Shown piece by piece: positions 13,576 to 51,507 of a stretch of 64,000 bases of DNA. Made by a program: the position numbers and the translations under genes. The stretch is taken from positions 324,595 to 388,594 of the forward strand of contig CAYPYN010000002.1 in NCBI GenBank assembly GCA_964415295.1. Reading direction: 5' to 3'. The DNA comes from an uncultured Bacteroidota bacterium. Its GTDB lineage: Bacteria; CLD3; SB21. The notes beneath the pieces are model-generated. The model made no database searches, was not told the DNA's origin, and saw only the letters and a list, made by a program, of their open reading frames with translations. Numbering within the stretch: the first letter of the stretch is position 1; each line of letters starts with the position of its first letter.

Positions 13576-13599
13576 GATCCAATATATGACAGATCTTCA

Positions 13600-14175: not shown

Positions 14176-14177
14176 CG

Positions 14178-17544: not shown

Positions 17545-17612
17545 CTTCCTTCGTTGTGCCGTTATAAAGTCCCGACCGTAAAGTTCATACCTTCAAAGAA
17601 CAGGAACCGTGA

Positions 17613-30570: not shown

Positions 30571-31377
30571 ATGTGCCGATTAGTTGTATATAAAGGTCGA
30601 GCGGTGCCGATTTGCAAATTATTACTGGAACCGCCCCATTCCCTACTAAAGCAGAGTTATGAGGCACGGGAGATGTTATCAGGCCGGCTGAACGCCGATG
30701 GGTTTGGTATTGGTTGGTATCAGAAAGCCCTCGATCCGAGTCCCGCCATTTATACCAGCACTCTTCCAGCATGGAATGATGTCAATTTACCGCGCATGAC
30801 AAACAAAATCGCCTCCGACCTTATATTCGGTCACGTCCGCGGCGCTTCGGATGGCATGCCGGTTACTTCCGCTAACACGCACCCTTTTTGTTATAAGAAT
30901 TTCATGTTCATGCACAACGGTTCAGTGGACAGCTTCCGTTCAAAAATTTATCCTGAAGTAACCTCATTTATAGACAAGAATCTTTGGGAGCATATCAAAG
31001 GTAATACGGATTCGGAACATATCTTCGGATTGTGGCTGAGTTTCCTTGGTATTTCCGATGTCCGTCCGTTCACGGTCGAGGAACAATCGGAGGCGCTTCG
31101 AAAAACAATTTCTTTCCTCGAAACTCTGGCCGACCGAATGAAAATCGAGATGGTCTTAAATTTGGCCATTTCCGACGGTTCCAATATTCTTGCGACGCGC
31201 CATCATTTTGGCAGCAGGAAAGCTTCGTTGTACTTTGCCAAAAATCTTACCGCATTCCCGGACTCTATTATCATTGCTTCTGAAAAACTGAACGACGACA
31301 ACGATTGGAAGCCGATTCCTGAAAGATCATTGGTCACAATTGAGGATGGCCATATTTTCCGGATTTCTACGCTGTGA
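30571..31377 (+). CDS. Class II (Ntn-type) glutamine amidotransferase domain protein (YafJ/EgtC-like)
   Basis: 268 aa beginning MCRL with a Cys2 nucleophile. Further motifs are DGFGIGWY and HTRWAS-like GHVRGASDG. Confidence 0.75.
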   Translation: MCRLVVYKGRAVPICKLLLEPPHSLLKQSYEAREMLSGRLNADGFGIGWYQKALDPSPAIYTSTLPAWNDVNLPRMTNKIASDLIFGHVRGASDGMPVTSANTHPFCYKNFMFMHNGSVDSFRSKIYPEVTSFIDKNLWEHIKGNTDSEHIFGLWLSFLGISDVRPFTVEEQSEALRKTISFLETLADRMKIEMVLNLAISDGSNILATRHHFGSRKASLYFAKNLTAFPDSIIIASEKLNDDNDWKPIPERSLVTIEDGHIFRISTL

Positions 31378-34090: not shown

Positions 34091-34921
34091 ATGAAAGCGA
34101 TCATTTTAGCGGCAGGACAAGGAAAAAGGTTACTCCCTCTGACCCAGGACACCCCTAAAACGTTATTGAATATTTCCGGCACCACGATTTTGGAATACCA
34201 GTTGGTCACTTTGGCCAGTTGCAATGTCAAAGAAGTGGTCTTAGTTGGCGGCTTCCGTGTGGACAAACTGAAAGACTATGCGGAACGCTATATTGCCCTG
34301 CACGGATTGGACCTCAAGTTAAAGGTCATCAACAACAAAGATTACGCGATCACGAACAATCTGTATTCTCTGTGGCTCGCTAAGGACGAAATGAATTCGG
34401 ATTTTCTCGTTATCAATGGCGACAACGTTTTCGATCGCCGCGCGATCGTGAAAATGCTGCAGCAGAAAGACATTACAGCCGCCGTGGCCATACACAAGAA
34501 CCCCAGCTACGACGATGAAGATATGAAAGTTCGTATTGTTGGTTCCAATGTGGTTGAAATCAGCAAAGGTATTGACAATCAGCTGGCCAGCGGCGAATCG
34601 ATCGGACTCCGGTTATTCCGCGGCAAAGGCGTAGCCGCTTTCAAGTATGCGATGGATCTGGCTATGATAGAAGACGTCAAACGCAACGCCTTTTTCGTTC
34701 GCGCGATCCAGCACATGATCGACATGGGTCACAACGTCGGTTACGTCGAAGTGACGGAATACAAATACGGTGAACTCGACTTTTTCGAAGACCTGAAGAA
34801 TCTCGAAATCGAAATGGCCGGTATGATGAAACAAACGATCATGATGCATACCAATCCGGCGAGCCTTTATGCGATCAGCTTACAGCCTTACCGCGCTTCC
34901 GGCATGAAAAAAGCGAGCTAA
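34091..34921 (+). CDS. Nucleotidyltransferase (sugar-/alcohol-phosphate cytidylyltransferase-like, IPCT/LicC-like)
   Basis: 276 aa with the N-terminal motif MKAIILAAGQGKRLLPL (GxGxRL NTP-binding loop) and LVINGDNVFD. A GGAGAAG Shine-Dalgarno site lies upstream. Confidence 0.8.
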   Translation: MKAIILAAGQGKRLLPLTQDTPKTLLNISGTTILEYQLVTLASCNVKEVVLVGGFRVDKLKDYAERYIALHGLDLKLKVINNKDYAITNNLYSLWLAKDEMNSDFLVINGDNVFDRRAIVKMLQQKDITAAVAIHKNPSYDDEDMKVRIVGSNVVEISKGIDNQLASGESIGLRLFRGKGVAAFKYAMDLAMIEDVKRNAFFVRAIQHMIDMGHNVGYVEVTEYKYGELDFFEDLKNLEIEMAGMMKQTIMMHTNPASLYAISLQPYRASGMKKAS

Positions 34922-34962
34922 TAGCTTGTAAATATTGATATCATTTGCAATTATATTAAATT

Positions 34963-34994
34963 CTTGATAGTTTAACTATCAAGAATTTTTTTTT
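34963..34994 (+). terminator. Hairpin plus T-run (terminator or attenuator) between the cytidylyltransferase gene and the downstream operon
   Basis: Stem CTTGATAG-tttaa-CTATCAAG followed by AATTTTTTTTTT. Confidence 0.55.
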
Positions 34995-35003
34995 GGCGTC
35001 AAT

Positions 35004-36170
35004 ATGAAAATAGCCTATATCACAACCATCAAGATTCCCAGCCCGCAGGCGATATCAGAACAGGTGCTGAATAATCTTTCCGCATTGAGTTCTCACTCCG
35101 ACCTTACAATCACGCTGATTGCGCCAAAAAGAAAAGACGAGGAGCCTTCATCGGATACCATACGCCAATATTACGGGCTGAAGACTCCGGTGAAAATACA
35201 ATTCATGATGTACGCACGTTGGATGGGGCCAAAGCTCCGACGGTTTCTGCACCCCTTTTTGGCACCTCTATATTGTTCACTAAAAGGATTTGATGTATTC
35301 TATACCCGACATCCGACCATTCTGTTTTTTTGTCTTCTGCTTCACAAAAAAACGGTTTTCGATACTTACCGAATGGATCTGAGTTACGATGGAAGATATC
35401 TATTATGGAGAAAGTTCTGTCTGAATCGACGGAAGCTCATCGGTATATTCAGCCATTCGGAATTGGCCCGTCAGTCCTATATCAAAGCGGGCTTTGATCC
35501 TGATAAGATAATCACCGTTTACAACGGCTGTAACGATCGCTTCGAGGAGAGTTGTACCCAAAGAGCCAAGGTTCGTACCGATCTGAACATACCGCACGAC
35601 CAGATCGTAGTATGTTATGCCGGGCGCATCGAAAGCAAGAAAAAAAGGACCGATCTTCTTCTTCATATCGCCCATGAATTTCCCGATATCGTTTTTTTGA
35701 TAGTTGGAGGGGCTACTCAACCGTCTGAAGACGCCGTTTTTGACGACTCCATCAAAGCGCTCGGTCTTAACAACGTAATCCGGACCGGAATGGTCAAACC
35801 GTGCGAAGTCATGAATTATTTATGTGCTTCGGATATACTCATCATACCGCCTTCGGAAGACCCGCTGCACAAATGCGGCAAAACGGTACTGCCTCTCAAA
35901 ACTTTTCAATACTTGTCGGCCCGAAAAGCGATCCTGGCACCGAGACTCCCGGATATCGGTGAGGTATTAAATCACATGCAAAACGCGGTTCTGGTCACCC
36001 CCGGAGACCTAAGCGAGGCCAACCAGCAGTTGCAGGTGCTCATTGTGAACCACGACCTTCGCACAAAATTATCCAACCAGTGCGCTGAAGATATAAAGAA
36101 GTACACATGGGAATATCGGGCCAATCAAATTGCCGGTTTTCTGCATCAACATACCTCCGAAGGACGTTAA
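35004..36170 (+). CDS. Glycosyltransferase family 4 (GT-B fold)
   Basis: 388 aa with a GT4 C-terminal domain. The EX7E-like region includes SEDPLHKCGKTVLPLKTFQYLSARKAIL. Confidence 0.75.
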   Translation: MKIAYITTIKIPSPQAISEQVLNNLSALSSHSDLTITLIAPKRKDEEPSSDTIRQYYGLKTPVKIQFMMYARWMGPKLRRFLHPFLAPLYCSLKGFDVFYTRHPTILFFCLLLHKKTVFDTYRMDLSYDGRYLLWRKFCLNRRKLIGIFSHSELARQSYIKAGFDPDKIITVYNGCNDRFEESCTQRAKVRTDLNIPHDQIVVCYAGRIESKKKRTDLLLHIAHEFPDIVFLIVGGATQPSEDAVFDDSIKALGLNNVIRTGMVKPCEVMNYLCASDILIIPPSEDPLHKCGKTVLPLKTFQYLSARKAILAPRLPDIGEVLNHMQNAVLVTPGDLSEANQQLQVLIVNHDLRTKLSNQCAEDIKKYTWEYRANQIAGFLHQHTSEGR

Positions 36171-37009
36171 TGATGAAGTTCAGTATCCCCCGAAAGATGC
36201 TATGGACTATGGCCATGGTTTTTGGTCTGTCCGCCGTGATCGGTTTTCTTCTCCTCGAAAACAGTATGCGGCCGGTTCTGATCCCTCTGATAGTTGGCAT
36301 AGCAACACTGCTGTTTTTTAGTGCTTATGCATATATTGAGTTATCCAGCCGCTTAAGCTCCCATCATGACCTTGTTTACAGACAAACTGAAGCTTTATTC
36401 GGGATTCATTCCGTACTGCATCCAAGACTTCCTTTACCCTCGATGAGAGGCTGGACCATTCTTCCGGACGCCGCCGCCATTATTATTTCCAATATTCTTT
36501 CCCGAAAGCCTAACTTCATTCTCGAGTGCGGGTCCGGCGTCTCCACTATTCTGTGCGGATATTCTCTGGAGCGACTCAATAGTAAAGGCAAGATTCTGTC
36601 CATCGATCATGAAGCGTATTATGGTTCGTTAACCGCGAAGACCATGGAGAAACACGGTTTTTCATCGGATATGTTCAAAATTGTCCACGCACCGCTTATT
36701 ACTCACAAGAATGATTCCAAGCCCTTCATTTGGTATGACACGTCGTTCTTGTCCTTATTGACAAATCCCGTGGATCTTCTTATCGTGGATGGACCTCCGC
36801 ACAAGACGCAGTATAAAGCCCGTTATCCCGCCATGGCATTCCTTTTCGAAAAGCTGTCGGACAATGCCGTCATCATCCTGGACGATGGCAGCCGTCAGGA
36901 TGAAAAAGCCATCGTCGAGCAATGGCTGTCAGAATATCCTTCTTTAAAATTAGAATTTCATGACACTGAAAAAGGTGTTGCTGTGTTAACCAAAACCTCT
37001 GGCGCATGA
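36171..37009 (+). CDS. Membrane-anchored class I SAM-dependent methyltransferase
   Basis: The start ATG abuts the upstream stop. Two N-terminal TM helices are followed by motif I ILECGSGVSTIL and motif LLIVDGPPH. Confidence 0.65.
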
Positions 37010-37012
37010 CCC

Positions 37013-37600
37013 ATGGAAACAACCATTAAGAAAATCGTATCGGAATCCATTTCAGCAAAGAACAAGCTTCTTGAAAACAAGGAACTGATTCGAACCATCG
37101 GCGTGGTGGTCAATCAAATAACAGACGCTTACCGAAATAACCGAAAAGTACTTTTCTGCGGCAATGGCGGCAGCGCTGCGGATGCTCAACACATCGCCGC
37201 CGAATTATCCGGAAGGTTTTATCTCAACCGGAAACCGCTTTATGCCGAAGCACTGCATACCAATTCGTCTCATGTAACGGCCGTGGCCAATGACTTCGGA
37301 TACCACGAAGTATTTTCAAGACTGATAGAAGCCATGGCCAATAAAAACGACATTTTGGTCGCCATTTCAACTTCGGGAAATTCTCCCAATATTTTAAAAG
37401 CCATCGAGGCGGGCCGGAAAGCCGGCATGATTACAGTCGGCCTGACCGGAGAAAATGGCGGCAAAATGAGGAACTTGTGCGATCATCTACTCAACGTACC
37501 GTCCAACGATACACCGCGTATCCAGGAGTGTCATATCCTGATTGGACACATTATTTGTGAACTTGTCGAAAAGGCGCTTTTTGAACCGGATCGACCTTGA
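37013..37600 (+). CDS. gmhA: SIS-domain D-sedoheptulose-7-phosphate isomerase
   Basis: 195 aa. FCGNGGSAADAQHIAAEL and ISTSGNSPNILKA are hallmark GmhA motifs. Confidence 0.85.
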   Translation: METTIKKIVSESISAKNKLLENKELIRTIGVVVNQITDAYRNNRKVLFCGNGGSAADAQHIAAELSGRFYLNRKPLYAEALHTNSSHVTAVANDFGYHEVFSRLIEAMANKNDILVAISTSGNSPNILKAIEAGRKAGMITVGLTGENGGKMRNLCDHLLNVPSNDTPRIQECHILIGHIICELVEKALFEPDRP

Positions 37601-38847
37601 TTGGAGTTTTTATGAAAGTCATCATTGATGCCCGTTCGCGCATGTCATTTGAGAAAGTCTACAGCATCCCGTTGTTTGAACGCATACTTAGACAACTCAA
37701 TGAACTCAAAGCCGACGTGGAAGCTATCATACTTCTTCCGCCGGACTGCAATCCTGATCATGCACTCACAGGAGGTTTTTCAAAAAGATATAAGATCAGG
37801 AAGAAGTTCATTACCACAGTTGATCCATTGCAAAAAGTGATCTCGGCCGAATCAGCCGGCGACGGTGACATGATCCTTCTGGAAGGGGACGGAATATATG
37901 ACGAAAGGATCATTTCGGCACTTATTTCCAGTCCTAAATCTATCCTGATTTGCGATGGTTCAAGTCCTTTGCCTTTGGCGGCCAGACTATCTCATGACCA
38001 TATTGGGATCCTACTGTCGTCCCAAAGAGGTGTCATGGAGTCCATCAATAATCTGGTGGAAAGCGGTTCGGTTCATCGATTTGAGATTCGTTCGATGAAC
38101 AATTATGTGCGATTTCTCCGCCGCAATGTCATACCGTTAATCACGAGAATTGTATCGAAAGATCAGATTCCTGAGATTGAAAATACGATGTACGCCAATA
38201 CATTCAAAGGAACGTTGGAGCTGGTGGCCGTTTACGGATACCGAATTCCTGTAAGAGAACTCACCAAATTATTCGCCCGAACACCAATCACTCCAAATCA
38301 TGTCACAGCGGCCGCATTGATTTGCTCTTTTGGCGCCATACCCTTCTTGGCTTTAGGTTGGCTCTGGACGGGTATTTTGATGGCCGCCGGTTTCATTATC
38401 TTTGATTCGCTTGACGGAAAATTGGCCCGGATGACCATCCGACTTAGCAAGGCCGCCGATCGCTTTGATCATTTGACGAGCACACCGACGCGATCGGCCT
38501 GGTATCTAGCTATGGGCTGGCATCTATCGAACGGAAATCTCCTAGACGGAACGGGGCTTTTTGCACTCGTCTACGCCGCCATGCCTTATGTGGATAAGCT
38601 GACCGGAGTTGCTTTTAATGCAAGATTCGGCCGGTCTCCGTTGGATTACACTCCGCTGGATGCGAAGGTCCATCTTTTTACAGTACGAAGAAATGATATC
38701 TTTTTGATGATTCTCGGGCTGAGTTTCGGATTTATTGAAACGGCCTATCGCATCGCGGCCATCTGGGCCTTGTTGACATGGCTTTGGCATCTGTATCGGT
38801 TCATCTGGTTCAACCTCTTCCCTCTCAAGAAGGAAGCCCAGTCATGA
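37597..38847 (+). CDS. Fusion protein: degenerate cytidylyltransferase-like N-domain + CDP-alcohol phosphotransferase-like membrane domain (paralog 1, non-canonical motif)
   Basis: 416 aa. The N-domain has KVIIDARSRMSFEKV in place of the GxGxRL loop but keeps ILLEGDGIYDERII (compare LVINGDNVFD in the 34091 protein). The C-domain has DGKLARMTIRLSKAADRFDHLTS, a CDP-alcohol phosphotransferase motif with G replaced by A and the last D replaced by S. It overlaps the gmhA stop by 4 bp. Confidence 0.7.
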   Translation: MIGVFMKVIIDARSRMSFEKVYSIPLFERILRQLNELKADVEAIILLPPDCNPDHALTGGFSKRYKIRKKFITTVDPLQKVISAESAGDGDMILLEGDGIYDERIISALISSPKSILICDGSSPLPLAARLSHDHIGILLSSQRGVMESINNLVESGSVHRFEIRSMNNYVRFLRRNVIPLITRIVSKDQIPEIENTMYANTFKGTLELVAVYGYRIPVRELTKLFARTPITPNHVTAAALICSFGAIPFLALGWLWTGILMAAGFIIFDSLDGKLARMTIRLSKAADRFDHLTSTPTRSAWYLAMGWHLSNGNLLDGTGLFALVYAAMPYVDKLTGVAFNARFGRSPLDYTPLDAKVHLFTVRRNDIFLMILGLSFGFIETAYRIAAIWALLTWLWHLYRFIWFNLFPLKKEAQS

Positions 38848-40019
38848 AAGTAATGATCCTGGCCATGAAATTCCTTCCTGCAAGCGGAGGAAGCGCCTCG
38901 TATGCATACAATATGGCGATCGGTCTGCATAGACTTGGACATGATATTACACTGATGGCGCCGACTTACTCGCACAGAACCATGGAAGATCATGTGTTTC
39001 CTTTCAAAGTCAGGCGATTATTTTGGTCGGGTCCCCATTTCGGAATGTTCAGGCTCTTGTTTGCGGCACTCCATATTATGGCTGTTTACATCCGGATCAA
39101 ACCGGACGTTGTTTGGACCACAAGCTTTGCAGGTTGCCGTGTTCTCGGGCTTCTGACCTTCTTAAGTGCCCGCTTTGTCGGAACGATACACGGCGGGGGT
39201 ATTCACCGGCGCTATCCCTCAAAAAAAATTTCCAACAAATTCGGTGATTACCTCGGAATGAGGTTCATGAAACGGGCGGATGCTATCGTTACCATCAGCG
39301 AAGAATCCAAAAAGATAATAAAGACCAAATTGCCTTTCGAGTTCATACATCGGAAGCTCCGTCTTATTTACAACAGTATAGACTTTGATAAGACGAAATT
39401 CCGATCCAGAGAAGACGCTCTGCAACTTCTGTCTGGTCTGAAAGACAAAAAGGTAATCCTCACGGTGGCGAGACTGGTGGCCGCAAAGGGTCAAGACGTT
39501 GTCATTCGCGCTATGTCTTTACTGGCCGATCGTCATCCGGATGCCGTCTATGTCATCGTAGGTGAAGGAGTGGAGAGACCGGCTCTGGAGGCTCTTGTCA
39601 AAGAGCTACGTTTGGAGGACCGTGTCCTATTCGCGGGATATGTCACCGACGAACAGCTTGAAATGTATTACGCCGTATGCGATCTGTTTGTGATGGCCGG
39701 GCGATGGACCCCTAATTTTGTGGAGGGTTTCGGCCTCGTATATCTCGAAGCAGGCATTCGAGGCAAAGTGGTCATTGGAACAAGAGTCGGAGGAATTCCA
39801 GAAGCCATTGTCGAAGGGCAGACGGGTTTTGTAATCGAGCCGGAAAACCCCGAATTGCTTTCGCAAAAGATCGCCGAAGTACTCTCCGACGAGAAACTCC
39901 GGTCAGAAATGGGAATTTTCGCCGCCCAATACATCGACCGTCACTACAGTAACGATGTCATGGCCGGCCACAACAACGATCTTCTCAAAGCACTGAAGGG
40001 ATCGCAACAGAAAGTATGA
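38845..40019 (+). CDS. Glycosyltransferase family 4
   Basis: The start MKVMILAMKF overlaps the upstream stop. It has a GT4 signature and an EX7E-like motif (VEGFGLVYLEAGIRGKVVIGTRVGGIPE). Confidence 0.8.
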
Positions 40020-41332
40020 ATAGTCTCGTAAAACAATCCTTACGTATTCTGTTTGGAAAATCGAGCATTTCCGGCATCGGTGTGTTGTTCACCATATATT
40101 TTGCCTACGAACTGCCAAAGAATTTATTCGCACTGATCGCCCTTTACAGTACGGCCGCCAGTTTTACTCAGGTCATGATCGACCTTGGCCTGTCGGCAAA
40201 AATGGTCCGCGAAGCGCCGTCCCTTCTGAAAGACCAATCGACCCTTAAGGACGCCGTAGATCGCGTAATCATGCCCAGCGTGGTTCTTCGCTGGATGGCG
40301 GCCGGTATCGTTTGTTTGATCATGTTCGGTTTTCTCCAATGGATGCAGGTACCTTTGTCCGACGAATTCCCGGATCTCAATATTCAGTTCATGATCCTGA
40401 TCGCTCCCGTGAGCATGATGTTTGAGAATGGCAATTCCACGCTCTCTTCCATTTTTCAGGTCAATCGCCGATTTGGTACGGATGCGATGCTGGCTTCTCT
40501 GGCGACCTTGCTTGAAATGGTTTTTGCCTTTATACTCTATCTTAATTTTGGCATGAGTCAGTATTTTACAGGCGTTCTGGCGGCACAAGCTTCCATTTTT
40601 CTTGTCAGGCTGTATCTTTGCCGGGAAACGATCCGACTCTTCAATTCGGCGGGATTGCCTTGGAAAAAGTACAGGGGTATTGTAAGAGAATATTGGCCCT
40701 ATTACTTAAGGCGCTTTTTCCGTTTCGGGCTTCTGCAGGGAGAACAGCTGTTGGTAGCGATACTCCTTCCGCTTGCACAGCTGGCCGATTTTAATCTGGC
40801 AAAAAAATTGTCAAAGTATATGAAATTCTATATTGAGGCCTTTACGAACCCGCTCATCATGAAGCTCTCCAAGAATCGAGACATCGAACTTAGGCGCAGG
40901 CACGCACGTCAATTCCTGCTTTTTACGGTACCCCCGCCGATCATACTTTGCCTGTTGAGCCCGTGGATCATGCAGATCGCCGGAGGGGAAAAATATGCCG
41001 GGAGTTGGTTCATCCTCGCCATACTTTATGCTTCCTATGTATTCTATGCTTTTTCCAATCTCCAGATATCCGCAATAACTATATTCGGAAAAGGTACTGA
41101 TGTCCTGATGAGAGATGCGATAGGCAGTGTGGTCGGTTTGTGTGCCACGTTTGTTTTGATTCTGCTGTTCGGGCAATACGGATTGGCATGGGGCCAGCTT
41201 CTCGCTTATTTCACACTTTTCATAACCGGATACCAGTTGTCAAAGAAGTACATTGACTCTGATACGTCTGTTGATAAAGAGAAAAATAAAAACAAAACTC
41301 CGGAACCATCGGCACTGACGATTCCGGACTGA
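40016..41332 (+). CDS. Wzx-like oligosaccharide/lipid flippase (MOP superfamily)
   Basis: 438 aa with about 12 predicted TM helices. It overlaps the upstream stop by 4 bp. Confidence 0.7.
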   Translation: MNSLVKQSLRILFGKSSISGIGVLFTIYFAYELPKNLFALIALYSTAASFTQVMIDLGLSAKMVREAPSLLKDQSTLKDAVDRVIMPSVVLRWMAAGIVCLIMFGFLQWMQVPLSDEFPDLNIQFMILIAPVSMMFENGNSTLSSIFQVNRRFGTDAMLASLATLLEMVFAFILYLNFGMSQYFTGVLAAQASIFLVRLYLCRETIRLFNSAGLPWKKYRGIVREYWPYYLRRFFRFGLLQGEQLLVAILLPLAQLADFNLAKKLSKYMKFYIEAFTNPLIMKLSKNRDIELRRRHARQFLLFTVPPPIILCLLSPWIMQIAGGEKYAGSWFILAILYASYVFYAFSNLQISAITIFGKGTDVLMRDAIGSVVGLCATFVLILLFGQYGLAWGQLLAYFTLFITGYQLSKKYIDSDTSVDKEKNKNKTPEPSALTIPD

Positions 41333-41362
41333 TTCTGGCAAAACCCAATTTGCGGAGTAATT

Positions 41363-42010
41363 ATGAAGTTGCTAAACCTCGCCAATACCATCACCATGGT
41401 TCGTATCATCATCCTGTACATCACTGTTTACCTGATATACAATGGGGAAATAGTATTCCTGTTTATGGCAATCGGGCTGTCCATAGTCATAATCGGCTTA
41501 GATTGGCTGGATGGTTTTGTGGCCCGCCGTCGTAATGAGGTGACGCAATTCGGCGGTGTTTTGGATATCACCGGCGACCGTATTGTCGAAAATGTGTTCT
41601 GGATCGTCTTTGCCGACCTCGACATCATTCCGATGTGGATACCCATTATCGTTATGTCCCGCGGTTTCATGACTGATGCGATCCGCAGCCAGGCTTTGAC
41701 CGAAGGTAAAACCGCCTTTGGAGAGAATACCATGATGACCAGTGATATCGGGAAATTTCTTGTATCCGGCCGGTTCATGCGCGGACTATACGGCATTATC
41801 AAAGGCGTGACATTCCCATACCTGATCCTGGTACTGATCGCGCAGGAGCGTCATTTGAGGGATGCCAATCTTCAGGACTATCTGTGGGTCTCTACTTACA
41901 CGAAGAACGGCGGCGTCGCTTTGGCCATTACTACAACGGTTGTGAGCCTATTAAGAGGAATCCCTGTTCTGACCGAGGGACGTAAACTCTTTGTTAAGGA
42001 TGAAAAGTGA
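41363..42010 (+). CDS. CDP-alcohol phosphatidyltransferase (PgsA/PIP-synthase-like), canonical motif
   Basis: 215 aa. DGFVARRRNEVTQFGGVLDITGD fits D-G-x2-A-R-x8-G-x3-D-x3-D exactly. Multiple TM helices. Confidence 0.85.
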   Translation: MKLLNLANTITMVRIIILYITVYLIYNGEIVFLFMAIGLSIVIIGLDWLDGFVARRRNEVTQFGGVLDITGDRIVENVFWIVFADLDIIPMWIPIIVMSRGFMTDAIRSQALTEGKTAFGENTMMTSDIGKFLVSGRFMRGLYGIIKGVTFPYLILVLIAQERHLRDANLQDYLWVSTYTKNGGVALAITTTVVSLLRGIPVLTEGRKLFVKDEK

Positions 42011-42648
42011 AACTGGCTATTTTCGATATCGACGGAACCATTACTAATAAATCATCGGAACGATTTTTCATCAAGTATCTGTTGGAACGGAAGATCATCG
42101 GCTACGGCCATTTGGTGAAGACATTTTTTCTATTCGTAATGAAGCACCCTTTGCAGGCACGGACGGGTTTTAAACAGAATAAGATGTATCTGAGAGATCT
42201 AAGTGATAAAGCCCTGCGACTGGCTGCGGCCGAGTGTTTCAAAAGGAGCATCAAGCCCAATATTAAACAAACCATATTGGATGAAATAAATGAACGGAAG
42301 TCCCGAGGATACAAGATACTCCTACTAAGTGGGTCGCTTCCCTGTCTTGTGGAACCGATGCTAGATCATACCGGCGCCGATCATATGATCTGTTCCGATG
42401 TAGAAATTTCCAACGGTCTTTTCACTGGACATATGACAGATCTGCATCCATACGGACCAAGAAAAAGGATACTCGCAGAAAGATTTTGTCAGAGAAACGG
42501 CTACCGCATGGACCAATCGTGCGCCTATGCCAACGAATGGGCCGACCGGTTTCTTTTGGAATCAGTCGGAGAAGCAGTTGCTGTCGATCCGGATGAGAAG
42601 CTCAGGAAATTGGCTGACTCCAAGAAGTGGAAAATGATTAAAAGTTAA
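42007..42648 (+). CDS. HAD-superfamily hydrolase, subfamily IB (phosphoserine-phosphatase-like)
   Basis: 213 aa with motif I LAIFDIDGTIT, then S/T, K and DD motifs. It overlaps the upstream stop by 4 bp. Confidence 0.75.
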   Translation: MKLAIFDIDGTITNKSSERFFIKYLLERKIIGYGHLVKTFFLFVMKHPLQARTGFKQNKMYLRDLSDKALRLAAAECFKRSIKPNIKQTILDEINERKSRGYKILLLSGSLPCLVEPMLDHTGADHMICSDVEISNGLFTGHMTDLHPYGPRKRILAERFCQRNGYRMDQSCAYANEWADRFLLESVGEAVAVDPDEKLRKLADSKKWKMIKS

Positions 42649-42649
42649 T

Positions 42650-44092
42650 ATGGCTAAAACATTTAAACTCAAGCAGGCCGCGTGGTTTAAGGATGAAGAG
42701 AGGGAATTTACAGTTCCCGATTCCTTCACTGTTGACTTGATCACTCCGAAGGATGCCCCCTCTTTGACACCCGACGAGATACTCGGCTCAATTCAAAAAC
42801 CTTTCGGTCCATCATTAAGAGAAATGGCCATTGGAAAAAAGAAGGTTGTCGTTGTAACCGACGATCTCGGAAGACCCACACCTGCTTACCTGTTGATTCC
42901 AATTTTAATCGAAGAGTTGGAGACGGCCGGTATACTGAAAGAAAATATTTCCTTCGTTATCGCGACCGGTTCCCACCGTCAGTTGTCTTGCAGTGAGATT
43001 GAAAAAAAAATCGGCAAGACCATAGCCGATTCCTATCCCGTTCATTGTCACGATGCCTTCAATTCCCCCATGGTTCATCTTGGCCGTTTGGATAATGGAT
43101 TCCCCTGTATAGCCAATAGACAAGTTGCCGAAGCCGATCTGATTCTTGGGATAGGGTGCGTGATCCCGCACGCTTGCCATGGTTTTGGAGGCGGCGCTAA
43201 GCTTTTCTGTCCCGGTATTGCCGGCATGGAAAGCATTGTTACCATGCACGGTTTTGTACCAAAACGCGGCCGCGTGATAACCGATCCTCCTCCTGGTGTG
43301 TGGGATATGCGTTCGGCATCCGAGGCCTTTGCCCGGCTATTGCCGCCGATCTTCCTGGTAAACGCCGTTGTCAATTCGCAAAGAGAAATTGCCGGATTAT
43401 TTGCCGGAGAGACCGATCCGGTTTTTCGGGCGGCTCAAGAACGGGCGTTGGAAATTTATAAAACGGAAATCGACCCTGAAAAGGCCGCCTCGTACGACGT
43501 CATCTTGGTCAACATGTATCCTCTGGATTCAGATCCGGTCCAGTCGGGAAAAAGCCCGTGGATCCGTCAGTACTTCAAGCATGCTTTACCTATTCAGATC
43601 AACAGTTCTGCGGACGGTATCGACTACCACGGCTGGAAATTATTGAGAAAGAGCCGCTGGTCAACTTTCTTAATACTATTAACCGGAGAAGCCTTGAGCC
43701 TTAAATTCATGCCCGTTTTCCTAAGACGGCCGGCTTCGTGGAAAATCATTAAAACCCTGAGGTCCTATTGCCTTAAACGAATGTTGGATCACCCGGGTGT
43801 CGATTATGACACATTCATCAAAAACCAACATACGCTGACTCAACGTACGGAAGATTATACAGATGATTCTAAGATCCCAAGTCTATTTCGCAAACCCTGG
43901 ATATTCTCTGAGAATTATCCTCCGTTACAATTCAAGAAGAAATATCCATTCGGGTCATTGCTGAGAAATTGGGATCACGTAATTCAGTCCATACAGAGCC
44001 ATTTTCCCAAGCCAAAAATTGCCGTCGTAACATGCGCCGCGATGCAGATTCCCGTTTATAGCAACTCACAAAACGAACCAAATGCTTTATGA
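42650..44092 (+). CDS. LarA-like (lactate racemase N-terminal domain / DUF2088) protein
   Basis: 480 aa. The N-terminal region VVVVTDDLGRPTP...IATGSHR resembles the nickel-pincer racemase/epimerase family. The C-terminal half is divergent. Confidence 0.6.
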   Translation: MAKTFKLKQAAWFKDEEREFTVPDSFTVDLITPKDAPSLTPDEILGSIQKPFGPSLREMAIGKKKVVVVTDDLGRPTPAYLLIPILIEELETAGILKENISFVIATGSHRQLSCSEIEKKIGKTIADSYPVHCHDAFNSPMVHLGRLDNGFPCIANRQVAEADLILGIGCVIPHACHGFGGGAKLFCPGIAGMESIVTMHGFVPKRGRVITDPPPGVWDMRSASEAFARLLPPIFLVNAVVNSQREIAGLFAGETDPVFRAAQERALEIYKTEIDPEKAASYDVILVNMYPLDSDPVQSGKSPWIRQYFKHALPIQINSSADGIDYHGWKLLRKSRWSTFLILLTGEALSLKFMPVFLRRPASWKIIKTLRSYCLKRMLDHPGVDYDTFIKNQHTLTQRTEDYTDDSKIPSLFRKPWIFSENYPPLQFKKKYPFGSLLRNWDHVIQSIQSHFPKPKIAVVTCAAMQIPVYSNSQNEPNAL

Positions 44093-45315
44093 CCATCCTT
44101 ATTGATGCCAGATCGAAATACGCTTCGGAAAGACTATTCAACTTATCCTTAACCGAGAGAATTCTGAGGCAATTGCATGTATTGGAAGCCAGAAACGTAT
44201 GCGTAATAATTTCTGAAGGCATGCGTCCTGACAATTTTGTTAAGACCGGATTTGAAAAACGTTTTCCTCTAGCGTTGCGCTGGATCTGCACAAACGAACC
44301 ACTGGCTAGAATTGCCGGCGAAACCGCAGATAAGAGCGACTACCTCATTCTCGAAGGAGACGGCATTTACGACGATCGTATTTTAAAAGAACTGTTGGAA
44401 TCGAAATCTTCGTTATGGGTAAGAAATGAGAAGAACCCGGAAGCGCCTCTAGCCCTCGCTCTCCGCGGATCCGACGTAAGGCATTTCACGGAATCCGGCA
44501 AATCACCAAAGGAATTCTTGGCAACCTTCTCCATTCCAACACTTGGCACGCACTCCATGCAGGCCTATATCCGCTTTTTGCGGAAACATATTGAACCCGT
44601 TTTGATTCGCTTGACGGATCCAAAGGATATTCGATCGATCGAAAACGATCTTTACGAAAAAACCTTTAAAGGCGGAATGGAAATCGTGGCGATCTACGGT
44701 TACCGGATCCCCGTTCGCGAACTCACTCGTTTTTTTGCCAAGACACCGATTACGCCCAATATGGTGACCGGCGTAGCTACCCTTTGTAAACTGGGAGCTA
44801 TACCGTTCTTTTTCTACGGTCATCTCTTGACGGGTCTGCTGTTGGCTTTTTCTTTTATTATCCTTGATTCACTGGATGGAAAACTGGCCCGCATGACCTT
44901 CCGATTCAGCGATACGGCCGATAAAGTTGATCATATGACAAGCATGCCGGCGCGGGTTGGGTGGAACTTCGGCATGTGCTGGCATTTTTCCGGCGGAGAC
45001 CTTACCAGCATACCCGGGATCGCCGGATTGATCGTAACGGTCCTGCCTTTTCTGGACGACATCAACTGGACCATTATCAAGCACAAATTCCATCGTTCTC
45101 TTTTCGATCTTACCCCTTTTGATGCAACCGTGCACCTGTTCAATGTCAAACGCAATGATACAGCCGTTATGATCATCGGCACCTTGGCCGGATTTCCTTT
45201 ACAGGCTTTTTATTTCATAACTTTTTGGACCATGGTCGTTTGGATCTGGCACACGGTACGAACCGCCTATGTGATCCTGGTTCTTAGTAAACAACATCCG
45301 GAAATGCTGCAATAA
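44089..45315 (+). CDS. Fusion protein: degenerate cytidylyltransferase-like N-domain + CDP-alcohol phosphotransferase-like domain (paralog 2, non-canonical motif)
   Basis: 408 aa, a paralog of the 37597 gene. The N-domain has MTILIDARSKY and ILEGDGIYDDRIL. The C-domain has DGKLARMTFRFSDTADKVDHMTS, with the same G-to-A and D-to-S substitutions. Confidence 0.7.
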   Translation: MTILIDARSKYASERLFNLSLTERILRQLHVLEARNVCVIISEGMRPDNFVKTGFEKRFPLALRWICTNEPLARIAGETADKSDYLILEGDGIYDDRILKELLESKSSLWVRNEKNPEAPLALALRGSDVRHFTESGKSPKEFLATFSIPTLGTHSMQAYIRFLRKHIEPVLIRLTDPKDIRSIENDLYEKTFKGGMEIVAIYGYRIPVRELTRFFAKTPITPNMVTGVATLCKLGAIPFFFYGHLLTGLLLAFSFIILDSLDGKLARMTFRFSDTADKVDHMTSMPARVGWNFGMCWHFSGGDLTSIPGIAGLIVTVLPFLDDINWTIIKHKFHRSLFDLTPFDATVHLFNVKRNDTAVMIIGTLAGFPLQAFYFITFWTMVVWIWHTVRTAYVILVLSKQHPEMLQ

Positions 45316-45336
45316 AACCGATAAGGCGATTAATCC

Positions 45337-46830
45337 ATGACCCCTTCTCCAGCTATAAGAAATGCGATACTGATCACGGTCAACTCACAACACCAGTCCA
45401 TAGTTACCGATGTGCTCTACGGCGGCGAAACTCTGCTTAACCGTTCGCTCGTGGCTATGTCCAAATCCGGGATTACGAAGGCAACGATCGTCTCGGCACC
45501 GGGTTCATCCCAAAAGATTATGGAAATGATCAGTAAAGTCGATCATCGTCTTTCTCTCAAGTATGATATCACGGAACTGAGTCAAAATGAAATTTTATCG
45601 GTAAAGATCAAATCGATTACCGCCGGAAACAAAGAAAGCTTTTTGATTTTCGAGGCGGACAAGTTCATGCATCCAACCTTCCTTCAGCAGGTCGTGGCGT
45701 CGGAGCTTCCGGATAAAGCCGTACTCCCGGCTTATAAAGATGTGCTCACCAAAGACGGACAGGTTGTCTTTGCTCCCTCTTTTAAAGAAAAATTCAAGAT
45801 CATTTTTGCAAATGCCGGGAGTTTCAACAAAATCAAAGTTGAGAACGCCGACTGGTCTTTATTCAACTCCAATCCCATGACACTTTCTGCGGCCAATGTC
45901 CGTACTGTTTTGACACAGAACGGGAGCGGTATTATATCCACTGACGTGATGGTTTGTTCAGGAAATATATTAAACCGCTTGACTGATTTTCGATCCCTGG
46001 ATGAAGCAATAAATCAGGCGATCGGATCGGGCCTTGCATCAGTGGCATTTGTCAAAGATGCCTGGTGGCTGCGTGTCACGCCGTCCATATCGAAGTCGCA
46101 CATCAAAGAGATGATATGGAAAATCGCTTTTAAAGAGATCAGCGGGGAATTTTCCAAGGCGGTTAACTCCAAGATGTCAAAACCGTTATCATTTTATTTT
46201 GCACGTAAAGGCGTAACTCCCAATACCCTCAGCAATGCGCAACTGGTCCTGTTTCTTTTGGCCTCCTGTTTCCTGCTATTCAATACACACTGGGCGATGA
46301 TCGTATTTGCGGTAATCTGGCAGTTTTCCGCCGGCGTTTTGGACCGCTGCGACGGCGAGGTAGCCCGCATTCGCAATCACGAATCGGAATCCGGCGGTCG
46401 CTTTGACATGATCATCGACGACATGCGTTTTGGATTACCGTTCATCATATTGGGTGCGGTACTTTATCTGGAAAGTCAAGACTCATTGTATCTCTTCTCC
46501 TTTGGAGCGGCATTTGTCTGGTTCTTAGCCTTGACCCTGTACGAACAGAATTTCATGCGCAAAGCCGGGTATGTCAGCCGCCAGGTGATGTATGTCGATT
46601 ATATGAAAATGATCGGTGAGGATAGCCAGACAACGTCGGCATTGAAGAAATACGCACCTATCGCCAAGGGCGATATCAGAACGTTTTATGTTTTTCTTTT
46701 ATCTCTTTTTGGTCTAAAAGAGATTGTCTTTTGGGTACTTTTGGCTTATCTTACCTTAGTTCCTATCTCTTCCTTCGTGGGTGTCCTGCGCTTTAAGAAG
46801 GAATATTCCAAGAACCCGGGCCGGGTGTAG
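45337..46830 (+). CDS. Fusion protein: cytidylyltransferase-like N-domain + canonical CDP-alcohol phosphotransferase (DIPPS-like) domain (paralog 3)
   Basis: 497 aa. The C-domain motif DGEVARIRNHESESGGRFDMIIDD fits D-G-x2-A-R-x8-G-x3-D-x3-D exactly. The N-domain (~250 aa) lacks a glycine-rich loop. Confidence 0.75.
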   Translation: MTPSPAIRNAILITVNSQHQSIVTDVLYGGETLLNRSLVAMSKSGITKATIVSAPGSSQKIMEMISKVDHRLSLKYDITELSQNEILSVKIKSITAGNKESFLIFEADKFMHPTFLQQVVASELPDKAVLPAYKDVLTKDGQVVFAPSFKEKFKIIFANAGSFNKIKVENADWSLFNSNPMTLSAANVRTVLTQNGSGIISTDVMVCSGNILNRLTDFRSLDEAINQAIGSGLASVAFVKDAWWLRVTPSISKSHIKEMIWKIAFKEISGEFSKAVNSKMSKPLSFYFARKGVTPNTLSNAQLVLFLLASCFLLFNTHWAMIVFAVIWQFSAGVLDRCDGEVARIRNHESESGGRFDMIIDDMRFGLPFIILGAVLYLESQDSLYLFSFGAAFVWFLALTLYEQNFMRKAGYVSRQVMYVDYMKMIGEDSQTTSALKKYAPIAKGDIRTFYVFLLSLFGLKEIVFWVLLAYLTLVPISSFVGVLRFKKEYSKNPGRV

Positions 46831-47038: not shown

Positions 47039-50000
47039 ATGCACAATCCCGCATTGCGACCCGTTTATGTCGGCATTGACGTTGGTTCTATCAGCGTCAA
47101 AATGGCCGCGCTGACCGCACCTGAGGACGAACTTGGTTCTTCTGATCACTTCGAACTTTTCAAGAACCAGCGCTTCACAATGGCTCTGTCCCGCTATCGC
47201 CGTTCGAACGGCGAAAGCCTGGCCGTGACCGTGCAGATGCTGCGTCAGTTAACAGAAATAATTCCTCTGAGCCGCATCGCCGGGATTCAGGTCATTGGAT
47301 CCGGCGGACGACAGATCAGCGATCATTTACAGGCGCAATTCGAGAATGAATTTCGTGCCGTAGCCAAAGGCGTGGGTACCTTATATCCGGATGTTCAGAC
47401 CGTATTCGAAATGGGCGGCGACAATTCCAAGTTCCTTCATATTCAAATCAACAAGCAGAGCGGCATGATCGGGATCGAAGATTATGAAAAGAACGGCGAT
47501 TGCGCGGCGGGCACGGGGTCTTTTATGGATCAGCAGGCCAGCCGATTGAAATACAACATCGAAGAAGTAGGAGACATCGTACTGAAAGCCGGAAAAGCCA
47601 GTACCATTGCCGGCCGTTGCTCCGTTTTTGCAAAGAGCGACATGATCCACGCCCAGCAGAAAGGCGAACAGCCCCCTGAAATCCTCAAAGGTCTGTGCGA
47701 AGCGGTTGTCAGAAACTTTAAGAGTTCCATCGTTAAAGGACGTACGATCGCGCCCAAAGCCATTTTCATCGGCGGCGTCTCGGCCAATAAAGGTGTGGTT
47801 CAAGCCATGAAGAACTTATTTGAAATTCCGGACGAGGATTTCATCACGACGCCGTTTTATGCCTGGTGCGGAGCTATCGGCGCGGCGCTCTTGGCTAAGG
47901 AAGCGAAGGTTCTAAAAGATCACCGGTATCTCGAAAGCTTAATTTCAGAAGGAGAACTCAAATCAAATAATAGTTTTGCGTCGGGACAACCGCTTCACAC
48001 ACGCGATGTCATCTTTTTGCGTGACCGGGTGAAGCCGTATTCCTTTGAAGGAAAATCCATTCCCGTCAAAGCCTATTTGGGAATTGATATCGGTTCGGTC
48101 AGCACCAACCTGGTCGTGATCGACGACGATAATAATATCATAAAAGAGATCTACGTCTATACGCAGGCGAGGCCTATCGAGATCGTAAACCAGGGTCTTA
48201 AGGATATCCACCGGGAACTGGGCGGAAAAATATCCGTTGAAGGCGTTGGCACGACAGGTTCCGGGCGGGAATTGATCGGAGAGCTGATCGGCGCCGATGC
48301 GATTAAGGACGAGATCACGGCGCATAAGACGGGAGCCGTCTACATCAGCGACAAACTCATCCAAGCCAAAGTCGATACGATATTCGAAATCGGCGGGCAG
48401 GATTCCAAATTCATCAGCCTGCAGGATAATATCGTGGTTGATTTTGCGATGAACGAGGCCTGTGCGGCAGGAACCGGTTCCTTCCTGGAAGAACAGGCGG
48501 AAAAACTCGGCATCAGCATCAAAGGTGAGTTCTCAAAGCTGGCCTTGAGTTCCGCCAGTCCGATCAAGCTCGGCGAACGATGCACGGTCTTCATGGAAAA
48601 AGACATCAACGCCTTCATGCAGACGGGCGCGGCCAAAGAGGACATCGTAGCGGGACTTGCCTATTCCATTGTTCACAATTATCTCAACCGGGTCGTGCGT
48701 TCAAGGAAGATCGGCGACACAATCTATTTCCAGGGCGGCACCGCTTACAATGATTCCGTGGCCGCGGCCTTCTCGATGGTTCTGGGTAAGAAGATCATCG
48801 TGCCTCCGCACAACGGCGTTGTCGGCGCTATCGGCGCGGCTATTCTAGCCAAAGAAAAAGTTCTTGCCGGTCAGGATAAGACGAAATTCCGAGGCTACAG
48901 TCTTGATGCGATCAATTATACCGTTCGCCATTTTACCTGCCGCGCCTGCTCCAATTTCTGCGACATGCAGGAGGTCAAAGTGGATTCAGAAAAAACATTC
49001 TGGGGGGATAAATGCTCCGACAAATTCCGTAAGAAAGCCAAAGTGGATAAAAAGCCGGTCATACCCAACCTGGCCGATCTCCGGGAAAACATCCTCATGG
49101 AAACATTTGAACCGGGCCGTAATCAAGGGAACAAATCGATCGGGCTCCCGAGGAGCATGCATTTTTTTGAGAAACTTCCATTTTGGAATGCCTATTTCAA
49201 TAGCGTGGGTTTTCAAGTGGTATTGTCGGAATCTACCAATAAAGAGATCATTAATGCCGGCGTCGAAGCGACCATCGCCGAACCGTGTTTCCCGATCAAG
49301 GTCGCTCACGGTCATTTTAAGAATCTAATAGACAAAGGCTGCGATTATATTTTCCAACCCAATGTCATCGACGGCGAGACGAAGTTCATGAACTACAACT
49401 CCCACCATTGCCCATGGACGCAGACTTTGCCGTTCGTTCTCAAAGGCTCCTCTCTCGGTGAAGGCCGCGAAGAAATGATCCTGTGTCCGACCCTTCATTT
49501 CCGCGAAGGTCAGAAAAAGATATCGGATGAACTTTTTGATTATCTGAAGAGGCCCCTGAATCTCAAACGGACATTGCACGATAAAGCCGTGCAAAGGGCT
49601 TATGATGCCCAGCACCGGTTCCAGCAAAAGCTCTATGAATTGGGCCGTGACGCGATCCGTGCTATCGACGACAGCGGCGAAATGGCCGTGATCCTGGTCG
49701 GCCGCGTGTATAACGTGAACGACCGCAGCATGAATCTCAATATCCCCAACAAATTGCGGGAGTATTACGGGATTAATGTCATCCCCATGGACATGCTCGA
49801 TATTCATTCCATCGATATCACCGATATCAACAACAACATGTACTGGAATTCCGGCCGAAAGATCCTTCAGATTGCGAAGTTCATAAAGGACAGACCGCAC
49901 CTGCATCTCATTTACATCACCAATTTCAAGTGCGGTCCGGATTCTTACATCAAACATTTCGTCGCCGAGGCATCAGGGAAACCTTTTCTAACCCTGCAAC

Positions 50001-50125
50001 TGGACGGCCACGCCAACGACGCCGGTGTGGTTACCCGATGCGAGGCTTATCTGGACAGCAAGGGATTTTTCAGATCCCAAAATGCCTCCTACCGGTACGA
50101 AATGGAAAAATGCGACGTCTGTTAA
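47039..50125 (+). CDS. CoA-substrate-specific enzyme activase-like protein (two BadF/BadG/BcrA/BcrD-type ATPase domains + C-terminal Cys-containing domain)
   Basis: 1028 aa with two acetate/sugar-kinase-fold ATPase starts (VYVGIDVGSISVKMA and YLGIDIGSVSTNLVVID). The downstream Cys cluster is CRACSNFCD. Confidence 0.7.
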   Translation: MHNPALRPVYVGIDVGSISVKMAALTAPEDELGSSDHFELFKNQRFTMALSRYRRSNGESLAVTVQMLRQLTEIIPLSRIAGIQVIGSGGRQISDHLQAQFENEFRAVAKGVGTLYPDVQTVFEMGGDNSKFLHIQINKQSGMIGIEDYEKNGDCAAGTGSFMDQQASRLKYNIEEVGDIVLKAGKASTIAGRCSVFAKSDMIHAQQKGEQPPEILKGLCEAVVRNFKSSIVKGRTIAPKAIFIGGVSANKGVVQAMKNLFEIPDEDFITTPFYAWCGAIGAALLAKEAKVLKDHRYLESLISEGELKSNNSFASGQPLHTRDVIFLRDRVKPYSFEGKSIPVKAYLGIDIGSVSTNLVVIDDDNNIIKEIYVYTQARPIEIVNQGLKDIHRELGGKISVEGVGTTGSGRELIGELIGADAIKDEITAHKTGAVYISDKLIQAKVDTIFEIGGQDSKFISLQDNIVVDFAMNEACAAGTGSFLEEQAEKLGISIKGEFSKLALSSASPIKLGERCTVFMEKDINAFMQTGAAKEDIVAGLAYSIVHNYLNRVVRSRKIGDTIYFQGGTAYNDSVAAAFSMVLGKKIIVPPHNGVVGAIGAAILAKEKVLAGQDKTKFRGYSLDAINYTVRHFTCRACSNFCDMQEVKVDSEKTFWGDKCSDKFRKKAKVDKKPVIPNLADLRENILMETFEPGRNQGNKSIGLPRSMHFFEKLPFWNAYFNSVGFQVVLSESTNKEIINAGVEATIAEPCFPIKVAHGHFKNLIDKGCDYIFQPNVIDGETKFMNYNSHHCPWTQTLPFVLKGSSLGEGREEMILCPTLHFREGQKKISDELFDYLKRPLNLKRTLHDKAVQRAYDAQHRFQQKLYELGRDAIRAIDDSGEMAVILVGRVYNVNDRSMNLNIPNKLREYYGINVIPMDMLDIHSIDITDINNNMYWNSGRKILQIAKFIKDRPHLHLIYITNFKCGPDSYIKHFVAEASGKPFLTLQLDGHANDAGVVTRCEAYLDSKGFFRSQNASYRYEMEKCDVC

Positions 50126-50146
50126 TGCCGGATTGAAACCAATATT

Positions 50147-51481: not shown

Positions 51482-51507
51482 TTGCATTCATTAAGCGGAG
51501 TCACGTC

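Follow-up and report, generated by a model that had tools for sequence, protein, structure and literature searches.

The occurrence of a gene for a D-sedoheptulose-7-phosphate isomerase (GmhA) among genes for CDP-alcohol transferases raises the question of where the heptose phosphate made by such an enzyme goes. The gene considered here lies on the plus strand, at positions 37013 to 37600, of a 64-kb stretch of DNA from an uncultured bacterium (contig CAYPYN010000002.1; the whole stretch is hereafter called the window), within an operon (35004 to 46830) of eleven plus-strand genes that overlap or are separated by intergenic gaps of at most 30 nt. A previous interpretation of this DNA (the sequence-only reading) had proposed that the GmhA product, D-glycero-D-manno-heptose-7-phosphate (heptose-7-P), is activated directly with CTP by the protein encoded at 34091, here named NT276, and is then transferred as a heptose-phosphate group. 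In the present study, we found that the GmhA of the window has the sequence features of an ordinary member of its family and that it is strictly paired with CDP416, a protein resembling the IPCT/DIPPS enzymes of inositol metabolism. Concerning the fate of heptose-7-P, the conventional route via phosphorylation at C-1, with the necessary genes lying outside the window, appears the most likely, direct use by CDP416 being possible but doubtful.

The sequence of the 37013 to 37600 product is that of a genuine, ordinary, and intact GmhA. An open reading frame (ORF) of 195 amino acids, from ATG to stop codon, spans exactly these coordinates, and the encoded protein matches the Pfam SIS_2 domain (E 2.5e-26; 92.8 bits against a cutoff of 27) and the solved GmhA structures 2xbl of B. 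pseudomallei and 1tk9 of C. jejuni (E 2.7e-52 over residues 8 to 190, with about 50% identity). In particular, His60, Glu64, Gln171, and His179 align with the four residues of 2xbl that serve zinc binding and catalysis in the B. pseudomallei enzyme, and all four are kept. Moreover, the protein shares 65% identity with the GmhA of a canonical hddA-gmhA-hddC-gmhB operon (comparison locus L005), and its predicted activity is the conversion of sedoheptulose-7-phosphate to heptose-7-P. The scores with the equivalog models leave some room for a different assignment, namely, a DiaA-like noncatalytic paralogue or the isomerase of another sugar phosphate, as the NCBIfam model TIGR00441 (gmhA) gives 207.0 bits, marginally under its cutoff of 209.45, and two further GmhA models stay far under theirs (NF010547, 203.5 against 320; NF010546, 202 against 276). 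However, the DiaA model scores far lower still (128 against a cutoff of 352), which, together with the conserved zinc and catalytic residues, led us to reject a DiaA-like role; taking into account also the identity to GmhAs of canonical operons, we regard it as very improbable that the protein is anything other than a heptose-7-P isomerase.

The gene that follows gmhA, at 37612 to 38847 on the plus strand, encodes CDP416. Its ORF opens with a TTG at 37597, but homologues and sequence indicate the ATG at 37612 as the likely start. The cluster and its flanking genes recur in the comparison loci L001, L002, L004, and L010 to L013, and in all nine related loci, the window counted, the gene directly downstream of gmhA encodes a CDP416 orthologue with 49% identity or more. 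No GmhA was found within 10 kb in any of about 70 loci with more distant members of the CDP416 family, nor was a CDP-alcohol transferase found near GmhA in any of 22 background loci. These background loci were taken from a scan of metagenomes for GmhA and have at least 4 kb of flanking sequence on each side; the best-segment identity in that scan did not exceed 62%, apart from one partial match (67% over residues 46 to 193), and none of the matches came from the clade of the window. The strict pairing of GmhA with CDP416 is a new, previously undescribed association. Thus, the link between GmhA and CDP-alcohol-transferase machinery that the sequence-only reading had perceived is supported as a functional one, the gene being co-transcribed with, and always upstream of, that of CDP416. 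We infer that the whole operon, which is lineage specific, conserved, and previously undescribed, builds an envelope phospho-glycolipid or a lipid-linked glycan.

CDP416 combines an N-terminal domain of the nucleotidyltransferase fold with a domain of six transmembrane (TM) segments resembling CDP-alcohol transferases. Its match to the Pfam family CDP-OH_P_transf is weak (21.7 bits against a cutoff of 22), and the NCBIfam models that it matches are those of PIP synthase, AIP synthase, and IPCT/DIPPS. An AlphaFold2 (AF2) model built with 30 homologues reached a pLDDT of 88, and a Foldseek search with it returned the IPCT-DIPPS structure 4mnd at the top (E 7.6e-13), followed by AF2299 and PIP synthases (PIPS), although the sequence identity with IPCT-DIPPS is only about 14%; the N-terminal 200 residues also matched the nucleotidyltransferases MurU, RmlA, and PntC. 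Inositol-1-phosphate is a substrate of each of these enzymes, PIP synthase, AIP synthase, and DIPPS. CDP416 and its paralogue CDP408, described below, share with the IPCT/DIPPS of A. fulgidus, which serves di-myo-inositol-phosphate synthesis, and with AF2299 and the PIP synthases the combination of a nucleotidyltransferase fold with a 6-TM transferase domain, as does CDP497, a third protein of the operon. However, CDP416 and CDP408 are set apart from those enzymes by the absence of the GxGxR loop, of the catalytic Asp of the nucleotidyltransferase, and of the fourth Asp of the transferase. Where the PF01066 motif reads D-x2-D-G-x2-A-R-x8-G-x3-D-x3-D, the two proteins have D265-x2-D268-G-x2-A-R273-x8-A-x3-D286-x3-S; the nucleotidyltransferase loop of CDP416 reads D-A-R-S instead of GxGxR, and the Asp of the "GD" motif varies among 30 members of the family. 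The N-terminal domain is probably noncatalytic; it features an invariant, polar, Arg-rich patch made up of D6, R8, E23, R24, R27, Q28, D97, and R99.

We found 277 relatives of CDP416 among the species representatives of GTDB, distributed over at least six phyla and occurring in Latescibacterota, Gemmatimonadota, Binatia, Myxococcota, and Alphaproteobacteria, the cultured Dongia deserti included. To our knowledge, this family of fusions between a pseudo-nucleotidyltransferase and a CDP-alcohol transferase has not been characterized. Genes of the family often adjoin those of a LicC-like nucleotidyltransferase and a Wzx/MATE-like flippase, and in L053 that of an LPG-synthase-like protein; the Dongia deserti gene (L089) lies directly 3' of lptF-lptG.

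The sequence-only reading had also noted that GmhA stands here without a heptose kinase, GmhB, or a heptose nucleotidyltransferase as neighbours, and for the 64-kb window this was confirmed. A Pfam scan of essentially all window ORFs of at least 150 amino acids detected no GHMP or PfkB kinase, no GmhB of the HAD-IIIA type, and no CTP_transf_like or HldE domain, and tblastn searches with the canonical HddA, HddC, and GmhB of L005 gave no match in the window. Likewise, HddA had no tblastn match in L001 to L004 or L010 to L013, nor had GmhB or HddC in the syntenic loci. However, the supposition that these partners normally go with GmhA does not hold in general. In E. coli K-12, gmhA has fadE and yafJ as its neighbours and no heptose genes in the vicinity. 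At the Bacteroidota loci L093 to L095, the only accompanying gene of interest is that of a GT4 glycosyltransferase; in one Bacteroidota genome, a 67% identical GmhA has just a GT4 and a thioesterase as neighbours. HddC or GmhB genes accompany 12 to 13 of the 22 background GmhAs (9 of them with HddA as well), and about 9 have none of these genes within about 10 kb. A gmhA without linked partner genes is therefore common, and it follows that their absence here need not mean a new pathway. The window resembles E. coli, where the gmhA, hldE, and gmhB genes of the ADP-heptose pathway are unlinked, in that gmhA stands apart from its partners; different from E. coli, where gmhA lies outside any biosynthetic operon, the gene is here part of one, next to an invariant neighbour.

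All characterized GmhA-dependent pathways, as far as we know, run via phosphorylation at C-1, and this route is represented within the same type of cluster. L090, a sister-lineage locus whose flanking genes are the same, contains at 10001 to 17583 the genes for NT273 (77% identical to NT276), a DegT aminotransferase, HddA (63.5% identical to canonical HddA), GmhA (66 to 72% identical to the GmhAs of the clade, with 72% for that of L002), an HddC-like nucleotidyltransferase, two CDP-alcohol transferases, and a DUF3047 protein. The cluster is devoid of a glycosyltransferase, a flippase, and GmhB. Its hddA-gmhA-hddC genes indicate that conventional activation of heptose is possible in clusters of this type. 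Furthermore, the closest relatives of this GmhA from outside the lineage are encoded in hddA-gmhA-hddC-gmhB operons (L005, L098, and L117). Thus, the window shares an orthologous GmhA with the pathway to GDP-D-glycero-alpha-D-manno-heptose (GmhA-HddA-GmhB-HddC), which supplies the heptoses of S-layers and capsules, and differs from it in that HddA, GmhB, and HddC were found neither in the window nor in the nine loci with the GmhA-CDP416 pair.

Since the characterized GmhA pathways all proceed through C-1 and L090 displays that route in this type of cluster, we favour a conventional route served by unlinked genes, with GmhA working for the envelope operon, and give it about an even chance of being correct. 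A C-1 kinase, a 7-phosphatase, and a heptose-1-phosphate nucleotidyltransferase, all encoded outside the window, would convert heptose-7-P to an NDP-heptose, which would be the donor for the GT4 enzymes of the operon; the CDP-alcohol transferases and the LicC-like cytidylyltransferase NT276 would be responsible for attaching phospho-alcohol groups or for forming the lipid anchor. Pfam scans found no other sugar-nucleotide synthesis genes in the operon, so the donors of its glycosyltransferases must come from unlinked genes anyway. Several observations weigh against the conventional route. No kinase or heptose-1-phosphate nucleotidyltransferase lies in the 37 kb upstream or the 26 kb downstream of gmhA in the window, nor within 10 kb on either side in any of the nine GmhA-CDP416 loci. 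Moreover, L090, the sole related locus with hddA and hddC, lacks CDP416, the glycosyltransferase GT413, and the Wzx-like flippase, which would also fit a replacement of the C-1 route by CDP416 and its companions. The GT4 enzymes of the window were compared with the GT4 linked to GmhA in Bacteroidota, taken as a proxy for a heptosyltransferase, and proved not to be alike (at most 24% against 40% identity). We put the evidence for direct use by CDP416 at a likelihood ratio of about six-fold, which is too little to overturn a prior that strongly favours the conventional route.

According to that alternative, heptose-7-P would be used by the co-transcribed CDP416 without activation at C-1, and GmhA would take the place that an inositol-phosphate synthase holds elsewhere. 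In its more likely form, conceived by analogy with PIP synthase and DIPPS, heptose-7-P would be the acceptor, so that CDP-X or CDP-diacylglycerol plus heptose-7-P would give X-P-heptose-7-P, which a phosphatase might trim and the GT4 enzymes extend, as in the chemistry of phosphatidylinositol mannosides (PIM) or mycothiol; in the less likely form, heptose-7-P would be the donor after cytidylylation by the N-terminal domain of CDP416. The outcome would be a heptose-phosphate membrane lipid or glycan, extended by the GT4 enzymes and flipped by the Wzx-like protein. The exclusive GmhA-CDP416 pairing reported above speaks for this alternative, as do the fold of CDP416, the fact that its best sequence models all describe users of inositol-1-phosphate, and the invariant Arg-rich patch of its N-terminal domain. 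CDP416 and HddA/HddC also show complementary distributions, and GT413 has BshA, PimB', and MshA as its best matches in the Protein Data Bank (PDB). Like CDP416 with GmhA, IPCT/DIPPS has an enzyme that forms a sugar phosphate, myo-inositol-phosphate synthase (MIPS), as its neighbour.

Also in favour of direct use is a closely analogous published cluster of Bacteroidetes, in which MIPS corresponds to GmhA and is accompanied by a LicC-like nucleotidyltransferase, a CDP-alcohol transferase, and a HAD phosphatase. According to a proposal that awaits confirmation, this cluster makes CDP-inositol and then phosphatidylinositol (Heaver et al. 2022, PMC9246714). To judge by gene content, this alternate inositol-lipid cluster is the closest published analogue of the trio formed in the window by NT276, the small CDP-alcohol transferase CDP215, and the HAD phosphatase, all three kinds of protein being present in both, and an LPG-synthase-like neighbour, as seen in L053, is a further point of likeness. 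However, the Pfam scan of the window ORFs revealed no MIPS domain, and GmhA is the only sugar-phosphate enzyme in the window.

Against direct use, the adjacency of GmhA and CDP416 would be equally expected if both merely served one product, the complementary distribution rests on a single locus with hddA and hddC, and L001 has no HAD phosphatase. Moreover, the loss of the fourth Asp and of the nucleotidyltransferase catalytic Asp in the CDP416 family makes the activity itself uncertain. The only users of heptose-7-P known to us are C-1 kinases, and we are aware of no precedent for another one. On balance, we consider direct use a possibility to be held tentatively, somewhat unlikely as it stands.

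NT276 (34091 to 34921, plus strand), the enzyme that the sequence-only reading had placed at the centre of its proposal, was reasonably labelled a cytidylyltransferase. It is a phospho-alcohol cytidylyltransferase of the LicC type with an intact GxGxR...K and GD motif (LAAGQGKRL...TPK...INGDNVFD), its homologues bear the name "phosphocholine cytidylyltransferase family," and its best PDB match is the CTP:phosphocholine cytidylyltransferase LicC (1jyk; E 1.7e-15, with a shared NN(L/F)YSL motif), followed by IPCT and PntC. With the HddC model it reaches 42.9 bits against a cutoff of 300, over the N-terminal 133 amino acids only, and tblastn found no significant match between it and the HddC of L005; an hhalign comparison with CDP416 gave a probability of 46% (E 2e-4). 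NT276 would, in the proposal, join heptose-7-P and CTP to CDP-7-heptose, from which the CDP-alcohol transferases would pass on heptose-phosphate. The phospho-alcohol rather than sugar-1-phosphate character of NT276 is in keeping with such a reaction, and no other obvious gene for a head-group precursor is present in the core cluster; the CDP-inositol route proposed for Bacteroidetes (PMC9246714) offers an analogy. The feasibility of the chemistry is illustrated by HS5.18 of C. jejuni HS:5, which makes CDP-6-D-fructose from CTP and fructose-6-phosphate in the CDP-6-D-glucitol pathway (Ghosh et al. 2024, PMC10918830). In that pathway, as in the one proposed for heptose-7-P, a sugar is cytidylylated via its primary-alcohol phosphate. 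The two would differ in that the C. jejuni substrate is a ketohexose and a reductase acts next, with no CDP-alcohol-transferase-family enzyme described in the sections consulted, whereas the window contains no reductase. The chemistry was thus called unprecedented with some overstatement, and CDP-7-heptose would, by this analogy, be a new member of the class of primary-phosphate CDP-sugars, not a new class. Our literature search returned no paper naming both GmhA and CDP-alcohol, and the literature on "CDP-heptose" concerns the anomeric nucleotide sugar sensed by ALPK1.

The genomic evidence disfavours this role of NT276. An AT-rich, terminator-like hairpin with a 14-bp stem and a T-run was detected by a scan of the plus strand at 34958 to 34997, between NT276 and the operon of GmhA, and a hairpin is kept 3' of the NT276 orthologue in L001 (about 6840 to 6880), L002 (about 7565 to 7605), L004 (about 7958 to 7998), and L090 (about 10856 to 10897), with compensatory changes in the stem across loci (GATAGT/ACTATC versus GGTAAC/GTTACC). 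The conservation of this hairpin suggests that NT276 belongs to a transcription unit separate from the GmhA operon. Orthologues with 61 to 72% identity are present in L014, L015, L018, and L092, none of which has a GmhA in the vicinity, and that of L092 is by itself at the syntenic position. LicC-like nucleotidyltransferases accompany genes of the CDP416 family in many phyla without GmhA. Furthermore, NT276 is 94 to 97% identical among related loci, compared to about 70% for GmhA, so that the two do not co-evolve as a pair. In L090, the orthologue coexists with dedicated HddA and HddC enzymes, which argues that its job is something else. A synthesis of CDP-7-heptose by NT276 is, in view of all this, quite improbable. 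As a separate matter, a gene for a full-length transketolase lies directly upstream of the NT276 orthologue in L014 (3179 to 5227) and L018 (4848 to 6989), both devoid of GmhA. Transketolase makes sedoheptulose-7-phosphate, and a link of NT276 to this compound was considered on that account; as the arrangement was seen in only two related loci, it is probably inherited synteny, and we discarded the idea.

The phosphatase at 42007 to 42648 on the plus strand belongs to the HAD-IB subfamily (TIGR01490, 107 bits, over the cutoff), and its start overlaps the stop of CDP215. It had been suggested as a substitute for GmhB, in which case only the kinase and the nucleotidyltransferase would have to be encoded elsewhere. 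The mere presence of a phosphatase in the operon lends itself to this suggestion, and L090, with hddA-gmhA-hddC but no gmhB, makes a non-orthologous phosphatase conceivable. However, subfamily IB differs from the HAD-IIIA subfamily of GmhB, and GmhB gave no tblastn match in the window or the syntenic loci. In addition, the HAD-IB protein travels with CDP215, to which it is coupled in L002, L004, L010, L011, and L013 and also in L017, where GmhA is absent, while it is missing from L001, where GmhA is present. The HAD of the Bacteroidetes cluster likewise belongs to a trio with a nucleotidyltransferase and a CDP-alcohol transferase (PMC9246714). We therefore do not favour this role and judge it improbable.

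The surroundings of GmhA are richer than previously described. While the nucleotidyltransferase at 34091 and the HAD-IB phosphatase at 42007 are real neighbours, the inventory was incomplete, since the operon comprises four proteins of the CDP-alcohol-transferase family (37612 to 38847, 41363 to 42010, 44089 to 45315, and 45337 to 46830), two GT4 enzymes, a flippase, a methyltransferase, and a LarA-like protein, all encoded on the plus strand. A variable region precedes gmhA: in the nine GmhA-CDP416 loci, only GT4 and methyltransferase genes occur between NT276 and GmhA. In the window, it contains a GT4 glycosyltransferase of 388 amino acids (35004 to 36170; Glycos_transf_1), whose position is taken elsewhere by a different GT4 or by PMT_2 or methyltransferase genes, and a membrane-anchored Methyltransf_24 protein of 300 amino acids (36107 to 37009; assigned by Pfam, start uncertain, two predicted TM segments), which was not found in the other related loci. 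Downstream of CDP416 lies GT413 (38844 to 40019, with ATG 38844 as the likely start; Glycos_transf_1, E 1.2e-42), a GT4 glycosyltransferase that is 71 to 76% identical in related loci and travels with the GmhA-CDP416 pair. It is followed by the Wzx-like flippase (40016 to 41332; Polysacc_synt in Pfam, multiple TM segments), conserved in related loci, and by CDP215 (41363 to 42010), a small canonical CDP-alcohol phosphatidyltransferase resembling PgsA and AIPS (Pfam E 1.5e-17), which scores 67 bits with the pgsA model, under the cutoff, and is 86 to 93% identical in related loci.

Beyond the phosphatase, the operon continues with the LarA-like protein of 480 amino acids (42650 to 44092; Lar_N, E 1.3e-44, with the malate/lactate racemase models under their cutoffs) and with CDP408 (44089 to 45315), which has the same architecture as CDP416 (43% identity by BLAST) and matches the NCBIfam PIP and AIP synthase models. 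It ends with the IPCT/DIPPS-like CDP497 (45337 to 46830), where a nucleotidyltransferase-like N-terminal domain precedes a canonical CDP-alcohol transferase domain (Pfam E 1.7e-10; 59 bits with the IPCT/DIPPS model); it is 45% identical to CDP485 of L090. Different from CDP416 and CDP408, both CDP215 (DxxDGxxAR..G..D..D) and CDP497 keep the complete canonical motif of CDP-alcohol transferases. The modules CDP215-HAD and LarA-CDP408 travel independently of GmhA. The C-terminal half of the LarA-like protein is divergent, 13 loci belonging to several phyla (e.g., L008, L014, L017, L023, and L030) pair its gene with that of a CDP408-like transferase, and no larB, larC, or larE cofactor genes were seen in the window; a homologue of nickel-pincer racemases is thereby tied to CDP-alcohol transferases. 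In L001 (15101 to 20582), two further CDP416-family paralogues replace the HAD/LarA module and are followed by a fusion of phosphoenolpyruvate (PEP) mutase with a nucleotidyltransferase, a phosphonopyruvate decarboxylase, and another nucleotidyltransferase, i.e., a phosphonate head-group module of the 2-aminoethylphosphonate (AEP) type. To judge from this module, each of the CDP416-family paralogues may attach a phospho or phosphono group of its own.

Directly 3' of the operon, the region from 47039 to 52239 encodes a 1028-amino-acid double BcrAD/BadFG ATPase with DUF2229, of the CoA-enzyme activase type, a 444-amino-acid protein that matches no family, and a protein with DUF3047. As a gene of this last kind also comes directly after the final CDP-alcohol transferase gene in L090 and L014, DUF3047 may belong to the system. 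On the other side, the cluster is bordered by the gene of a GATase_4 protein (a YafJ-like class II glutamine amidotransferase; 30571 to 31377 in the window), and the same holds for every syntenic locus. The gene yafJ (244327 to 245094) also lies immediately downstream of gmhA in E. coli K-12, a likeness that is possibly a coincidence. Farther away, an apparent cluster for the catabolism of hydroxyproline or proline occupies 2203 to 11989 on the minus strand, with genes for two proline-racemase-family proteins, an FAD oxidase (DAO), an ornithine cyclodeaminase-like and a DHDPS-like protein, an aldehyde dehydrogenase, an M24 peptidase, and a GntR/FCD regulator. A scan of the window for sigma-70 promoters gave 24 hits, not over the chance expectation of 22.7, and an Rfam scan of the window revealed no RNA family.

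The surprise is thus smaller than had been claimed, while the association of GmhA with an IPCT/DIPPS-like protein is real and remains. If heptose-7-P follows the conventional route, the GmhA is an ordinary one and the novelty lies in the envelope-glycoconjugate operon around it, from an uncultured phylum; this is useful for annotation and otherwise unsurprising. If, instead, CDP416 uses heptose-7-P directly, this would be the first GmhA-dependent pathway to bypass phosphorylation at C-1 and a new fate for the GmhA product, and it would give a first substrate and function to the widespread family of pseudo-nucleotidyltransferase/CDP-alcohol-transferase fusions. Heptose metabolites are agonists of innate immunity through ALPK1, and for this reason new heptose conjugates would be of some interest.

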